Position numbers and translations under genes: made by a program | Part shown: positions 601-4,369 of the stretch, in pieces | Layout of the letters: every line of letters starts with the position of its first letter | Position numbering within the stretch: position 1 is the first letter of the stretch | DNA from: a virus | Virus record (IMG/VR): IMGVR_UViG_3300045988_004583 | Coordinates: 1 to 5,886 of that record | DNA: 5,886 bases | Strand: one strand, 5' to 3' | The notes under the pieces: generated by a model | Databases searched by the model: none | What the model saw: only the letters and a program-made list of their open reading frames with translations | What the model was told of the DNA's origin: nothing

Positions 601-641
601 ACACGCACGCACGCGCACGAAATCGCGCACATGCGCGCGTG
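601..641. repeat. GC-rich alternating purine/pyrimidine island (two tracts)
   Basis: 601-619 acacgcacgcacgcgcacg (19 nt) and 624-641 cgcgcacatgcgcgcgtg (18 nt) both alternate Pu/Py perfectly and are separated by aaat. CGCGCAC is directly repeated at 612-618 and 624-630. CACGCGC(610-616) is complementary to GCGCGTG(635-641). Confidence 0.8.
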
Positions 642-684
642 ATTATTATTATTTATTATTTATTTGTTGTAGTCGTAGTAGTAG
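642..684. repeat. Simple trinucleotide-periodic repeat (ATT/TTA)n then (GTA/GTC)n
   Basis: attattattatttattatttatttgttgtagtcgtagtagtag, read directly from the sequence. Confidence 0.8.
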
Positions 685-695
685 GGAGTGTTGAA

Positions 696-779
696 ATGTT
701 GATAACAATGAATAATTATCCTTGGAACGATATTTTTTTACTGATTTTAATGTTGATACTCTTGTGGATAAGTTGTTGA
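696..779 (+). CDS. Candidate 27-aa hydrophobic peptide (MLITMNNYPWNDIFLLILMLILLWISC); hypothetical
   Basis: ATG 696 is preceded by the SD-like GGGAG (684-688) at 7-nt spacing, and the stop is TGA 777-779. It is below the ORF-track size cutoff. The hydrophobic core runs from I13 to I25. No dedicated promoter was found, and the region is T-rich and repeat-rich, so the ORF could be fortuitous. Confidence 0.25.
   Translation: MLITMNNYPWNDIFLLILMLILLWISC
763..771 (-). promoter_or_regulatory. Perfect consensus DnaA box (TTATCCACA on minus strand)
   Basis: The + strand reads tgtggataa, whose reverse complement TTATCCACA is the canonical high-affinity DnaA box. Neighbouring repeat copies differ from TTWTNCACA by 1-3 positions, for example 697-705 -> TTATCAACA and 847-855 -> TTTTCAACA. 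Confidence 0.6.
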
Positions 780-800
780 ATTGTTGAAAGTGTAGCAAAA

Positions 801-820
801 TGCACAAAACCATTTGTGCA
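801..820. promoter_or_regulatory. Perfect 8-bp inverted repeat (TGCACAAA-acca-TTTGTGCA): operator-like palindrome or ssDNA hairpin
   Basis: 801-808 TGCACAAA, loop 809-812 acca, 813-820 TTTGTGCA. It sits between the third and fourth repeat pairs. Confidence 0.6.
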
Positions 821-861
821 ACTTTTAGTGGAAAACTTGTTGAAAGTGTTGAAAACGCAAT

Positions 862-2209: not shown

Positions 2210-2681
2210 CTGGAGACAGACCGCAACGACGAAGCCGACCGAGGCCGGAGAAAGTGTAAGGCGAACATATCTCTGGGAACGCAACGAAAAAGGCGAAAAG
2301 GTGCTGAGGCTTGACCAGACGATTGACCAGCAGGCCGAAATCGACAGCTATCTCGAAGAAACCAAGCTGGAAAACATCATCCGGCGGGCAAGCATCGATC
2401 CGGACATTGCGGCACGACTCGTACCAGACATGGGAAACGGAATCCAAGACTACACCGAAGCACCGCAGACACTGGCGGAACTCCAAAACATCATGCTGAG
2501 GGCGGAACAGATTTGGGAAGAGGTGCCGAAAGACATCAAGCTCAAATTTGATAACGATGTCGATAAATTTATTGCATCGTTTGGCACAGTCGAATGGGCG
2601 AAAAATCTGGGCATCTACAAAGAAAAGCAGGCCGAAGCCGAAGGAACTAAGAAAGCAGAAGGAACGGAGGCCAAACAGTGA
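2187..2681 (+). CDS. VP3: Internal scaffolding protein VP3 (164 aa from ATG 2187)
   Basis: ATG 2187 follows the SD AAGGAG (2171-2176). The track's upstream TTG at 2160 has no SD. The protein is acidic and helical, and its C-terminal ...VPKDIKLKFDNDVDKFIASF... resembles the conserved VP3 C-terminal region. It lies directly upstream of VP1 and overlaps it by 4 nt, the typical gokushovirus synteny. Confidence 0.75.
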   Translation: MAFRSISNWRQTATTKPTEAGESVRRTYLWERNEKGEKVLRLDQTIDQQAEIDSYLEETKLENIIRRASIDPDIAARLVPDMGNGIQDYTEAPQTLAELQNIMLRAEQIWEEVPKDIKLKFDNDVDKFIASFGTVEWAKNLGIYKEKQAEAEGTKKAEGTEAKQ

Positions 2682-4369
2682 ACAGAAACAAAGACGCAGG
2701 ATTCAACCAAGTACCGCGGCTGGACATCACACGAAGTCGATTCAAAAGACGGCAAGATGTCAAACTGACGTTAAACGCAGGACAGCTTATCCCGTTTTAC
2801 GTCGATGAAGTGTTACCGGGTGATACCTTTAGCATCGACCAAGCAGCTATCATCCGCATGACAACGCCAATCTTTCCAGTCATGGATAACTGTCACATGG
2901 ACATTTATTACTTTAATGTCCCATGTCGCATCCTTTGGGAACACTTCAAGCGCTTTATGGGTGAGAACGACACTGGGCCGTGGGCACAAACTCAGGAGTA
3001 CACCATTCCGCAAATCAAAATAACTGGTACGGCGGAAAAACCAGCACCATACGAAGGAAGCATCATGGACTACATGGGCATTCCTACCAAAGTGAGCAAG
3101 GGGGAGGACACCGCCTTCAGCGTAAACGCACTTCCTTTCCGCGCTTACGCCATGATATGGCAGGAGTGGTTCAGAGACCAAAACGTGGACAATCCGGCCA
3201 TAAACAGCACCGCAGACGCGACCGTGAATTATACGGACGACGAAACCAAGGGAATGGACGCGGCAACACCGGATTTGGAGTACATTCTGCAAAACGCATA
3301 CACGGGCGGCAGGCCTCTGCCTGTCAATAAGTACCACGACTACTTCACATCGGCTTTGCCTTCCCCTCAGAAAGCGGGAGAACCGGTTACAATTCCACTA
3401 ATCGGAAATGCACCTGTGAAGATGTACGCCAACAAAGAACTAAGCAACCCAATGCCACTAACGGGAGGAAACACAGCCCACGCAGTAACAAATCTGAAAG
3501 CAAACGCCAAAAGTGTAATCGACACCACGCAGGACCCTATGAGCGGGCTCATTGCGAACATCGGCTCAATGGATTTTACGGGATACATGGGAGCGGAACT
3601 GAACAACGTTACAAGTGCAACCATCAACCAACTGCGGCAAGCATTCCAAGTACAAAAATATTACGAAGAACTCGCACGCGGCGGCAGCAGATACCGTGAA
3701 ATGATTTATTCGCTGTTTCATACCAAAATCAGCGATAAAACGGTACAGATACCGGAGTACCTAGGCGGCACGAGAATCACCATCAACATGAGTCAGGTTA
3801 TCCAGACCAGTGGCACGACCGCAGAGAGTCCGCAGGGCAACACGGCAGCAGTGAGCGTAACGCCGTACAATGGCAGTATGTTCACCAAGAGCTTCGAAGA
3901 ACACGGTTTTGTTATCGGTGTATGCTGCATCCGACATGACCATACATATCAGCAGGGTCTCGAACGGATGTGGAGCCGGAAAACCAATCTGGATTTCTAT
4001 TACCCGGTCTTCGCAAATCTGGGAGAGCAAGCTATCCTTAAAAAGGAGCTGTATCTCACCGGCACCGCAACGGATGAACAAGCATTCGGCTACCAAGAGG
4101 CATGGGCAGAATACCGTATGAAACCAAACAGAATCAGCGGCAAATTCCGCAGCAATGCAACGGGAACGCTGGACAGTTGGCACTACGGCGACAACTACAC
4201 GAAAACGCCAAGCCTCAGTCAGGCATGGATGAAAGAGGGAGACTCCGAAATTCAGAGAACTCTGGCAGTCGACAATGAACCTCAGTTTATCATGGACACG
4301 GTCATTGACAACACCAGCGTCAGACCTATGCCTATGTACAGTATTCCGGGACTCGTCGACCATCACTAA
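2678..4369 (+). CDS. VP1: Major capsid protein VP1 (F-like jelly-roll), 563 aa
   Basis: GTG 2678 follows the SD GGAGG (2666-2670) at 7 nt. The N-terminus NQVPRLDITRSRFKRRQDVKLTLNAGQLIPFYVDEVLPGDTF is the hallmark Microviridae capsid N-terminal signature, and its length is typical of gokushovirus VP1. It is the longest ORF and is followed by a strong terminator. Confidence 0.95.
   Translation: MNRNKDAGFNQVPRLDITRSRFKRRQDVKLTLNAGQLIPFYVDEVLPGDTFSIDQAAIIRMTTPIFPVMDNCHMDIYYFNVPCRILWEHFKRFMGENDTGPWAQTQEYTIPQIKITGTAEKPAPYEGSIMDYMGIPTKVSKGEDTAFSVNALPFRAYAMIWQEWFRDQNVDNPAINSTADATVNYTDDETKGMDAATPDLEYILQNAYTGGRPLPVNKYHDYFTSALPSPQKAGEPVTIPLIGNAPVKMYANKELSNPMPLTGGNTAHAVTNLKANAKSVIDTTQDPMSGLIANIGSMDFTGYMGAELNNVTSATINQLRQAFQVQKYYEELARGGSRYREMIYSLFHTKISDKTVQIPEYLGGTRITINMSQVIQTSGTTAESPQGNTAAVSVTPYNGSMFTKSFEEHGFVIGVCCIRHDHTYQQGLERMWSRKTNLDFYYPVFANLGEQAILKKELYLTGTATDEQAFGYQEAWAEYRMKPNRISGKFRSNATGTLDSWHYGDNYTKTPSLSQAWMKEGDSEIQRTLAVDNEPQFIMDTVIDNTSVRPMPMYSIPGLVDHH

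Follow-up and report, generated by a model that had tools for sequence, protein, structure and literature searches.

The closest described counterpart of the element considered here is the basal unwinding system (BUS) of bacterial chromosomal origins, in which a DnaA-box pair (box 6/7), DnaA-trios and an AT-rich region are combined, as at incC of B. subtilis (Richardson 2016/2019; Pelliciari 2021, PMC8287927; Pelliciari 2023, PMC10721633). In B. subtilis a 9-nt box is followed by an 8-nt box, the gap CCGG and GAT trios, with a spacer of 12 (Table S1 of Pelliciari et al. 2021, PMC8287927); the proximal 8-nt box is TTAGGTGT (written 3'->5'), and in S. aureus the gap at the same place is CGTG. 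The polarity of the BUS was obtained from cryo-EM and biochemistry, a 5' tail of trios being followed by G19 and G20.

The Microviridae replicate, in the textbook account, by means of a virus-encoded rolling-circle nuclease together with host elongation factors, and to our knowledge the host initiator DnaA has no known part in their replication. A literature search on DnaA, oriC and DnaA-trios in relation to Microviridae, gokushoviruses, microviruses and phages, in which subscription journals were thinly covered, returned no prior description of such a module. Here, a cassette in the non-coding region of a gokushovirus genome is described that has the architecture of a BUS and, judged from its sequence, is very probably a DnaA-binding element of this type.

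Genome context and extent of the cassette

The window (the whole stretch of DNA analysed, 5,886 nt) comprises a circular gokushovirus genome of 5745 nt with a terminal redundancy of 141 nt. Its source is a small ssDNA gut phage. The encoded proteins match the Phage_F capsid, Chlamy_scaf, ORF5 and Rep families, and the only Rep in the genome is, by protein family matches, an HUH rolling-circle protein. The DnaA module is a discrete cassette of ~215 bp, with boundaries in the window inferred by homology, and lies in non-coding DNA of the circular microvirus genome rather than in a chromosomal origin, which would typically adjoin dnaA and dnaN. The coordinates 689-855 given in the preliminary description cover the box array and omit positions 641-688, which hold the AT-rich tract, the TAG trinucleotide repeats and the GC gap and turn the array into an origin-like module (Table 1). 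An Rfam scan of 500-1700 returned nothing meaningful, and the small ORFs downstream of the promoter gave no family match hinting at a DnaA-interacting or DNA-binding regulator.

Table 1. Features of the DnaA module, with positions in the window.
Feature	Position	Strand	Remarks
Whole DnaA module	641-856	.	AT-rich tract, trios, box pair, spacer and box array
AT-rich tract GATTATTATTATTTATTATTTAT, candidate DNA-unwinding element	641-663	.	Low GC
TTGTTG hexamer, in trio register	664-669	+	Phage-specific, conserved; usually AACTTGTTG in relatives
DnaA-trio array TAG TCG TAG TAG TAG	670-684	+	3'-GAT-5' motifs read on the + strand
G-rich gap GGAG, 4 nt	685-688	+	4 nt in 95/105 distinct cores
Trio-proximal 8-nt DnaA box TGTTGAAA	689-696	+	Abuts the distal box, co-oriented
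Distal 9-nt DnaA box TGTTGATAA	697-705	+	TTATCAACA on the - strand, 1 mismatch to TTATCCACA
DnaA-box-like 9-mer TGTTGATAC	751-759	+	Mean conservation 0.85 vs 0.65 in the preceding spacer
Triple-box unit	763-790	+	TGTGGATAA, perfect (763-771); TGTTGAAT(T) (774-782); TGTTGAAAG (782-790)
8-bp-stem hairpin/palindrome TGCACAAA-ACCA-TTTGTGCA	801-820	.	Mid-array
Second triple-box unit	827-855	+	AGTGGAAAA (827-835); TGTTGAAAG (838-846); TGTTGAAAA (847-855)

The DnaA-box array

The preliminary description had reported a perfect DnaA box at 763-771 among eight TGTKGAWAN 9-mers of one orientation, arranged as four tight pairs. The perfect box, the exact reverse complement of TTATCCACA, is present and occurs once in the genome, and the expectation of 0.004 attached to it is arithmetically correct. 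Seven exact TGTKGAWAN 9-mers were found in 689-855, starting at 689, 697, 751, 763, 782, 838 and 847, whereas the eighth repeat (774-782, TGTTGAATT) deviates at position 8 and fits TGTKGAW. All eight are on the + strand and none is on the - strand, the pairing was confirmed as 689/697, 751/763, 774/782 and 838/847, and one further copy lies outside the array (5397). A ninth, weaker copy of the repeat opens the second triple-box unit. Mismatches to TTWTNCACA number 0 at 763, 1 at 697 and 847, 2 at 689, 751, 782 and 838, and 3 at 774, the majority of the boxes deviating from the classical consensus at the normally conserved C (TTATC-C-ACA -> A).

Shuffled sequences were used for comparison. Across the whole window TGTKGAWW has 9 sites against 2.27 +/- 1.43 in shuffles, 9 being reached in 0/200, and the non-coding region 530-1018 carries 8 repeats on one strand, where dinucleotide shuffles averaged 0.25 and never exceeded 3 (0/5000). 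The triple-box unit at 763-790 (conservation 0.87-0.91) recurs as a unit at 827-855 (0.83-0.89), forming the repeat families D1 and D2, and TTGTGCAA of the 801-820 palindrome was found in 59/64 loci.

The putative unwinding core

A BUS was defined by a box that has <=2 mismatches to TTATCCACA and is separated from the trios by 0-16 bp, by a further tandem box of the same orientation with <=4 mismatches at 0-3 bp from the first, and by an uninterrupted run of >=3 trios (NAN, preferably 3'-GAT-5') on the strand reading 5'-trios...TGTGGATAA-3'. Box, tandem box, trios, a short G/C-rich gap and an AT-rich region beyond the trios are all present, in the order AT-rich tract, trios, gap, TGTTGAAA, TGTTGATAA on the + strand of 641-705, and this arrangement recurs in 0-1/5000 local shuffles. 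Three consecutive TAG trios occupy 676-684, with TCG and TAG further 5', and the distance from the distal box to the first trio is 12 bp, equal to the spacer of B. subtilis, S. aureus, Listeria and B. halodurans. GC content over 640-669 is 10%, the lowest in the non-coding region; the AT-rich tract lies on the far side of the trios, where chromosomal origins also have theirs, and among relatives its sequence varies and its AT-richness is kept.

Order, strand, abutting 9-nt and 8-nt boxes, 4-nt gap, 12-bp spacer, TAG trios and AT-rich tract are thus shared with the B. subtilis BUS, and the polarity agrees. The phage copy differs in that it is carried on a 5.7-kb ssDNA virus genome and not between dnaA and dnaN, its boxes are mostly of the TGTTGAAA type, its trio 4 is often non-canonical, and the cassette contains the extra TTGTTG and is invertible. 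The phage element would work like a BUS, yet it is not a chromosomal oriC.

Among 105 distinct cores, conservation across the trios peaks at intervals of 3 nt; TAG stands at trio 3 in 96 cores and at trio 5 in 97, both positions being outside the search pattern, and trio 4 is variable (TCG, TAG, GAG, CCG or ACG). Where trio 4 is TCG, as it often is, the NAN rule is violated. Each of the two TTG triplets at 664-669 is retained in 95/105 distinct cores, and TTGTTG was found in 73/83 distinct microvirus modules against 2/118 of the chromosomal matches listed. Phage-specific, placed beside the trios and lacking a counterpart in the host origins listed, the hexamer may signal that the cassette has an additional or different function.

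One such function would be DnaA-assisted rolling-circle initiation, in which DnaA melts the AT-rich tract to give the HUH endonuclease VP4 the single-stranded substrate that it needs, VP4 nicks at or near (AA)CTTGTTG, and the cassette is the viral plus-strand origin. The conservation of (AA)CTTGTTG in 73/83 phage modules against 2/118 host origins favours this reading; the motif is similar to the 5' half of CAACTTG|A, the nick site of phiX174, and the VP4 tyrosine motif YVAGYVTKK to that of phiX174 A. However, the window has ATTTGTTG and not AACTTG, and inversion of the cassette, described below for relatives, would switch the nicked and hence the packaged strand with the flanking strand-specific hairpins unmoved. 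A more conventional candidate origin than the cassette is a separate hairpin that immediately follows VP4 (541-581) and has an invariant loop. Assisted nicking is accordingly regarded as improbable.

Occurrence of the core in bacterial origins

A pattern derived from the phage, TAGTAGN{3,5}TGTTGAWWN{0,1}TGTKGAWW, was scanned against bacterial genomes and matched at least 120 genome stretches, with ~13 expected from its information content. In 91/120 of the matches listed dnaA lies at a distance of 72-1113 bp, in every case on the side of the boxes and with its 3' end towards them, the canonical orientation, and 85/120, by record titles, belong to Bacillota, mostly Clostridia. TGTTGAWW occupies the trio-proximal box position in chromosomal origins adjoining dnaA, and the phage core is in this respect identical with genuine origins. 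The origins of Oscillospiraceae and Eubacteriales are full of TGTTGAAA and TGTGGAAA boxes. In the chromosomal origins listed, which are mostly from Clostridia and are predicted rather than experimentally mapped, TGTTGAAA is the most frequent enriched 8-mer even with the matched pair excluded, and it is from this enrichment that the use of such boxes by DnaA is deduced; in the phage cassettes it is the most frequent and the second most enriched. Scoring the repeats against TTATCCACA had therefore undersold them, since TGTTGAAA is the commonest enriched box type in many Clostridia origins and not a degenerate form.

The same boxes in the same geometry beside dnaA, together with the deep conservation among phages described below, strongly support the suggestion of the preliminary description that host DnaA is engaged, and the cassette very probably recruits host DnaA. 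That description had also considered iterons for a phage or host regulator. In such a case the repeats would bind a different protein, for instance Spo0A, some other factor of the host or one encoded by the phage, and resemble DnaA boxes by coincidence. TGTTGAA is one base off the Spo0A box TGTCGAA, and phi29 uses Spo0A-type boxes. Against such iterons stand the identical motif and geometry adjoining dnaA in bacterial origins, the occurrence of T and G alone at repeat position 4 across 105 distinct box-pair cores, and the content of the phage itself: the direct-repeat families in 530-1018 are box-based and AT-rich only, no second repeat family and no iterons for an element-encoded theta initiator were found there, and no phage DNA-binding regulator is recognisable. 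A coincidental likeness is very unlikely. A phi29-like Spo0A-box array in particular is excluded by the lack of TGNCGAA in 530-1018, the 3 copies in the whole window being not above chance.

The closest cores among the matches listed come from Oscillospiraceae and Eubacteriales MAGs (L141, L170, L192, L166, L198), and BLAST returned close cores also in two gut 'Alphaproteobacteria' MAGs (L095, L202) among these matches. A host in the Oscillospiraceae/Eubacteriales is only suggested, as boxes of the TGTTGAAA type are found in several phyla. A recent capture from a single host origin was rejected: similarity of the non-coding region to bacterial loci covers just the BUS core of 40-65 nt, with 80-92% identity and no extended homology beyond it, so that the cassette appears to be a case of mimicry or ancient capture rather than of recent transfer from any origin compared.

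Conservation and inversion among microviruses

The preliminary description had proposed to look for the same array in related microviruses, and the module was found in nearly all of 80 loci gathered through VP4 alone. At least 146 loci of gokushovirus size carry the cassette, down to 37% VP1 and 29% VP4 identity (best-matching segment), and conservation is 0.83-0.95 in boxes and trios against 0.57-0.70 in spacers and flanks. One divergent microvirus, L283, instead carries a canonical TGTGGATAA pair, as though adapted to a different host. No box cluster and no BUS were found in the cultured gokushoviruses SpV4, Chp2 and phiMH2K, and the module is therefore not essential to the family, nor do these three provide a convenient experimental system for it.

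The main rival to an origin-like role is a DnaA sink or decoy, in which the cassette on the multicopy replicative form (RF) would soak up DnaA, especially DnaA-ATP, with no replication starting there; host initiation would be blocked or delayed and DnaA-controlled genes deregulated, with replisome components thereby freed for rolling-circle synthesis. About ten co-oriented boxes within 170 bp would suit a sink, as would orientation independence, and one relative (L070) keeps the distal array with the BUS core deleted. There are precedents in datA of E. coli and in the multicopy DnaA-box regions that cause incompatibility in B. subtilis. Titration, however, needs boxes only, whereas conservation of trios, 4-nt gap, 12-bp spacer and AT-rich tract is no weaker than that of the boxes, and KT264799 retains a minimal AT-rich tract, trios and box pair with no array. 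Because trios and an AT-rich unwinding tract are present, recruitment of DnaA is likelier than its mere titration, and the sink is rated as unlikely, although it is taken more seriously than the other alternatives.

The cassette is orientation independent. Its ~210-bp equivalent is precisely inverted in L076 relative to L072 and in L081 relative to L064, with flanks collinear on both sides, and the module is on the non-coding strand in 20/137 carriers (15%). Precise inversion between unchanged flanks indicates that the cassette works on double-stranded DNA, which counts against the ssDNA-hairpin primosome raised in the preliminary description. There, the complementary strand would be primed on incoming ssDNA through a DnaA-dependent (ABC-type) primosome, for which the R6K A-site is a precedent, and the packaged-sense strand does bear the trio motifs, bound by DnaA as ssDNA, in 85% of carriers. 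In the other 15%, however, it is the opposite strand that is packaged-sense. In the predicted ssDNA fold (MFE and centroid) boxes and trios are unpaired and no box is in a hairpin stem, the + strand having no complementary box copy save a distant TGTTGAT inside the capsid gene (~3788), and formation of the DnaA oligomer in vitro needed duplex boxes. The hairpin form of this reading was rejected on the predicted fold and the inversions, and ABC-type priming as a whole can be given hardly any weight.

Inversion bears also on a transcriptional switch, in which the DnaA-ATP level, as a read-out of host growth, would repress or activate the first genes through the array. DnaA is a known transcription factor, and a strong extended -10 promoter that drives these genes is located at 973-1001, 118 nt downstream of the last box. 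Such a switch has no need for trios or an AT-rich tract, inversion would alter the polarity of the boxes and the end facing the promoter, and the array is far from the -35 element; the switch is thus considered less probable still than assisted nicking.

Proposed mode of action

The observations establish the architecture of the sequence, its identity with genuine origins, its conservation and its independence of orientation, and from them we infer that DnaA binds, that the DNA is unwound and a helicase loaded, and what the phage gains by it. On balance, 641-856 is probably an oriC-like DnaA module acting on the double-stranded RF. Host DnaA-ATP would bind the co-oriented boxes, namely the perfect one (763), those with 1 mismatch (697 and 847) and those of the TGTTGAAA type typical of Clostridia origins. 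The abutting pair at 689-705 would guide an oligomer of DnaA-ATP past the 4-nt gap GGAG and on to the trios at 670-684, and the oligomer would stretch the trio strand and melt the neighbouring 10%-GC tract (641-669), as in a BUS. Most simply, the open complex would be used as at oriC, with the host helicase loaded and theta-type replication of the RF primed, independently of and in addition to rolling-circle replication by VP4; the outcome could be amplification of the RF or episomal upkeep in step with host initiation. The chance that the cassette serves in origin firing or helicase loading is put at close to even. We know of no precedent for a second replication mode besides the complete rolling-circle system of microviruses. 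No partition or lysogeny functions by which episomal maintenance would be stabilised are recognisable in the phage.

Several known systems share parts of this scheme. Like oriC plasmids and minichromosomes, the RF would be a small circular dsDNA with DnaA boxes and an unwinding region as its theta signals and no theta initiator of its own; those plasmids are artificial, DnaA-only replicons derived in the laboratory from chromosomal origins, whereas the phage case would be natural, virus-borne and coexisting with an HUH rolling-circle Rep. Iteron origins (P1 oriR, pSC101, F, R6K, RK2) also combine DnaA boxes with an adjacent AT-rich region on a mobile element, but they require their own Rep on the iterons with DnaA as an accessory, whereas in the phage the DnaA box is the sole repeat family and trios are present. 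Titration loci (E. coli datA, the DnaA-box clusters of B. subtilis) are similarly dense in boxes away from the chromosomal origin, but are not defined by trios or an unwinding tract, which are the best-conserved parts of the phage cassette. The ABC primosome A-site (an ssDNA hairpin with a DnaA box; R6K) and the minus-strand origins of phiX174 (PriA) and G4 (primase) likewise let an ssDNA replicon recruit host initiation proteins, but the phage has neither a box-bearing hairpin nor strand specificity, which points to a different mechanism.

Significance

A conserved origin unwinding core in these phages points to a second replication mode, to hijacking or silencing of host initiation, or to a new way of opening DNA for the viral nuclease. 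Tentatively, and with the odds against it, a widespread group of gut gokushoviruses may be natural 'minichromosome viruses' with a DnaA-only, host-mimicking origin on the RF that fires with the host chromosome. If so, an ssDNA phage of lytic type would gain a theta mode and a plasmid-like carrier state in Clostridia, and its host range would be set in part by the fit to the DnaA-box dialect of the host. BUS-like elements were also found in unrelated larger viral contigs, which suggests that mobile elements may mimic origins more broadly. The compact, invertible cassette with its hundreds of variants would be a natural experiment on the minimal BUS, the box dialect would provide a sequence-based handle on host prediction, with the TGTTGAAA type indicating Clostridia such as Oscillospiraceae, and the finding, if true, would offer a concrete and testable account of the long-term persistence of microviruses in the gut.

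Genome and box repeats

The window represents a circular genome of 5745 nt written with a 141-nt terminal overlap (5886 bases in total), and its encoded protein set, listed in the table, identifies it as a gokushovirus. The relatives nearest to it in GenBank, 81-86% identical, are gut gokushoviruses recovered from faeces of humans, pigs and monkeys. The putative DnaA module sits in a non-coding region of 490 nt, which separates the VP4 stop (529) from the next downstream ORF (1019).

Features of the window and of L283, a divergent IMG/VR microvirus
Feature	Position	Strand	Remarks
AT-rich tract GATTATTATTATTTATTATTTAT	641-663	+	GC 10% over 640-669
TTGTTG hexamer	664-669	+	
Trios TAG TCG TAG TAG TAG	670-684	+	
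Gap GGAG	685-688	+	
Proximal box TGTTGAAA	689-696	+	
Distal box TGTTGATAA	697-705	+	
Phage_F major capsid protein	2678-4369		
Scaffold protein, Chlamydia-phage type			encoded by the window genome
ORF5/VP5 protein			encoded by the window genome
Pilot protein			encoded by the window genome
VP4, HUH replication protein	5255 across junction to 529		
L283 module	~3854 of L283	-	

The preliminary description had placed a perfect DnaA box at 763-771 among eight co-oriented, tightly paired TGTKGAWAN 9-mers (689-855). The perfect box was recovered, TGTGGATAA being the exact complement of TTATCCACA and present as a single copy in the genome, and all copies lie on the + strand in the same pairs. Seven of the eight repeats agree with the 9-mer, the eighth (774-782) fits TGTKGAW only, and a ninth, weaker copy, AGTGGAAAA, was located at 827-835. 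TGTKGAWW sites numbered 9 in the whole window against 2.27 ± 1.43 in dinucleotide shuffles, and 8 on one strand of the non-coding region against a shuffle mean of 0.25 (maximum 3; 0 of 5000 shuffles reached 8); the excess of co-oriented box-like repeats is confirmed. A higher-order repeat was also seen in the array, with a triple-box unit made up of one (T/A)GTGGAWAA box and a TGTTGA pair (repeat families D1 and D2) occurring at 763-790 and 827-855, the copies 64 nt apart. Binding of the repeats by a protein other than DnaA, including their earlier interpretation as iterons of another regulator, was not borne out, as neither Spo0A boxes nor a second repeat family was found in the non-coding region.

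Comparison with bacterial origins

The stretch 641-705, directly 5' of and through the first box pair on the + strand and overlooked in the preliminary description, has the anatomy of a basal unwinding system (BUS) of bacterial oriC. In a BUS, a DnaA oligomer opens the adjoining AT-rich DNA, and the trios form the 5' tail of a strand running on via G-G to the boxes (PMC8287927; PMC10721633); the polarity of the window is the same (trios 5', then gap, then boxes). Read 3' to 5', the B. subtilis element consists of AATAGGTGT, TTAGGTGT, CCGG and GATGATAAT..., with a spacer of 12 (Pelliciari et al., Table S1; PMC8287927), and its 9-nt, 8-nt and 4-nt layout also occurs in S. aureus, Listeria and B. 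halodurans (Table S1, PMC8287927). The phage element, in the same reading, consists of AATAGTTGT, AAAGTTGT, GAGG and GATGATGATGCTGAT, with a spacer of 12 as in B. subtilis, and the composite arrangement arose in 0-1 of 5000 local shuffles. The TTGTTG hexamer (AACTTGTTG in most relatives) directly precedes the TAG trios, in register with them, and is not canonical as a DnaA-trio.

The phage-derived pattern TAGTAGN{3,5}TGTTGAWWN{0,1}TGTKGAWW was searched in one genome per bacterial species and yielded at least 120 stretches, against about 13 expected by chance from the information content of the pattern. A tblastn search with E. coli DnaA as query located dnaA in 91 of the 120 matches listed, at a distance of 72-1113 bp; in every case the gene was on the side of the boxes and its 3' end was directed at them. 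These 91 conform to the canonical order, which is dnaA, boxes, gap, trios, AT-rich tract and dnaN. Almost all the matches listed have extra TAG/TAA trios and an upstream AT-rich tract, neither demanded by the pattern, and record titles assign 85 of the 120 to the Bacillota, with Clostridia in the majority. The dnaA-dnaN spacers of Oscillospiraceae and Eubacteriales origins (L089, L173, L166, L141, L170, L192, L198) are dense in TGTTGAAA and TGTGGAAA boxes, frequently paired at the same tight 8-9-bp and 11-bp distances. In an 8-mer enrichment test run without the matched box pair, TGTTGAAA was the most frequent enriched 8-mer beside the chromosomal matches (125 copies, 34 loci, 20-fold) and the commonest enriched word, second by enrichment, in phage cassettes (303 copies, 63 loci). 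TTATCAACA or TTTTCAACA are species motifs of some bacteria in DoriC-based entries of Table S1 (PMC8287927). The pattern matches beside dnaA and the 8-mer enrichment argue that the repeats represent a box dialect used by many predicted Clostridia origins, and not decayed TTATCCACA boxes, the chromosomal origins compared being mostly predicted from dnaA linkage in MAGs. A host among the Clostridia, possibly the Oscillospiraceae, is only suggested.

Among the matches listed, the phage BUS core was matched best, by BLAST, in two gut 'Alphaproteobacteria' MAGs (L095, 5974-6000; L202, 7333-7359), at 84-85% over 55-56 nt including TAG TTG TTG TAG TAG, with several TGTTGAAA boxes close by and a dnaG-like gene near. 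dnaA was absent from the 8-kb stretch fetched around this match, which may be a dnaA-unlinked origin or another replicon.

Conservation across viruses

Eighty IMG/VR loci were collected by VP4 alone, and are therefore unbiased for the DNA motif; VP4 identity splits them into a close (85-95%) and a distant clade (56-58%), and the module is present in nearly all. Members of the distant clade have TGTGGAAAA (= TTTTCCACA), a perfect TTWTNCACA fit, as trio-proximal box, and in them TGTTGAAAA replaces the perfect TGTGGATAA of the window, so that G and T are exchangeable at box position 4. A direct pattern search of viral contigs gave at least 120 further stretches, about three quarters microvirus-sized. 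In total, the module is carried by at least 146 microvirus-size loci with at least 105 distinct cores, and in the most divergent carriers identity to the window, over the segment that matches best, is down to 37% (VP1) or 29% (VP4). Trios 3 and 5, outside the search pattern, are TAG in 96 and 97 of the 105 cores listed and the gap is 4 nt in 95, while trio 4 is variable (TCG, TAG, GAG, CCG, ACG). In an alignment of 133 distinct modules, conservation was 0.83-0.95 for boxes and trios versus 0.57-0.70 for spacers and flanking hairpins, the boxes at 751-855 falling equally within the conserved class though outside ascertainment. The strong conservation of parts needless for titration speaks against the rival reading of a DnaA sink.

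Two natural deletion variants were identified: KT264799 is left with the AT-rich tract, five TAGs, GGGAG and the box pair only, and L070, where an assembly error is possible, has lost the trios and proximal pair and kept the distal box array. In L283 (37% VP1 identity over the segment that matches best), a pair of canonical boxes, TGTGGATAA TGTGGATAA, stands by TAG TAG, which suggests that the box dialect tracks the host. Inspection of SpV4, Chp2 and phiMH2K revealed nothing comparable to the module. The non-coding DNA of the window recurs at 70-90% identity in GenBank gokushoviruses whose genes show no nucleotide similarity.

BUS-like elements, in which extra trios and a G/C gap accompany a box pair of TGTGGATA type, were also observed in larger, non-microvirus IMG/VR contigs (9-109 kb where listed), comprising one family (L221, L222, L236, L255, L274, L288) and L219/L295, L265, L268, L269, L286, L300 and L304. 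A dnaA gene was not found in their fetched stretches; mimicry of origins may also occur in other phages, or in phage-plasmids.

Inversion and flanking elements

The module is opposite to the gene strand in 20 of the 137 carriers listed. In two pairs of close relatives (L076/L072 and L081/L064), the first ~195 nt after VP4 are collinear, the next ~210 nt, from AT-rich tract to last box, are inverted, and collinearity resumes beyond; the flanking hairpins keep their orientation and the DnaA cassette alone is flipped. Because the inversion covers exactly the cassette, it sets the limits of the unit (641-856 in the window), and because the flanks are unchanged, the cassette is independent of the packaged strand, as a discrete module of double-stranded DNA would be. 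Among the matches listed, 73 of 83 distinct microvirus modules contain the TTGTTG hexamer, versus 2 of 118 chromosomal matches; the same counts apply to (AA)CTTGTTG. DnaA-assisted melting that lets VP4 nick at this phage-specific motif is an attractive rival reading, but under it cassette inversion would switch the packaged strand. The ABC-primosome reading, with a DnaA box in an ssDNA hairpin, was rejected given this strand-independent inversion, a predicted ssDNA fold in which trios and boxes are unpaired, and the lack of complementary box copies on the + strand, save one distant TGTTGAT in the capsid gene (~3788).

Directly after the VP4 stop, a hairpin at 541-581 has a stem that covaries between clades, a constant loop, CTATCAAG(T/A)A(A)G, and a following T-run; the loop complement includes CTTGATAG, a nick motif of pC194/phiX174 type, on the - strand, and the hairpin could serve as plus-strand origin, as terminator or in both roles. 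An imperfect palindrome (CACGCACGCACGCGCACG...CGCGCACATGCGCGCGTG; 597-640), rich in GC and with purines and pyrimidines in alternation, adjoins the AT-rich tract, occurs in most relatives and is unchanged in orientation where the cassette is inverted. Mid-array, a palindrome with an 8-bp stem (TGCACAAA ACCA TTTGTGCA; 801-820) contains TTGTGCAA, which 59 of 64 loci retain; members of the distant clade have another hairpin, then the same TTGTGCAAC. The near-invariant hairpin at 885-935 (GCGTCATGC...CCTAGCGCATGACC), 79-85% identical in gokushoviruses without a DNA-level gene match (GenBank matches H12-H15), includes TAGCGC, which recalls the CS-6 element of ssoA-type single-strand origins, and is a candidate for the minus-strand origin. 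At 1388-1429, a strong terminator hairpin (GGGCTTGACAGGCCC and a T-run) contains a perfect TTGACA-18-TATAAT promoter in its loop and tail. Regulation by DnaA of a promoter at 973-1001 is a further rival for the function of the module.

Proposed function

The best-supported reading of the sequence is a DnaA-dependent unwinding module on the replicative form. Host DnaA-ATP would fill the co-oriented boxes, all pointing, as the BUS pair does, towards the trios, on the supercoiled replicative form; an oligomer that starts at the 689-705 pair would then extend over the TAG trios and open 641-669. We infer binding, oligomer formation and melting from equivalence to characterised and predicted origins. 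Helicase loading would follow and lead to DnaA-dependent theta replication, the simplest extrapolation because helicase loading is, to our knowledge, the next step in every characterised BUS.

At the sequence level the cassette has all the features that define a BUS; it would be BUS-like in working and not an oriC, being non-chromosomal. The P1, pSC101, F and R6K origins require an iteron-binding Rep of their own, trios and an unwinding tract are not defining features of datA-type clusters, and the minus-strand origins of the phiX174, G4 and ABC-primosome types act on ssDNA; the cassette differs from all of these. No such link of DnaA, oriC or DnaA-trios to Microviridae or other phages was found in the full-text literature, where subscription journals are poorly covered. 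The replicon class in which this known type of origin module occurs is unexpected, and the module has peculiarities of its own. Through theta replication the replicative form would be amplified, or kept in step with the host.
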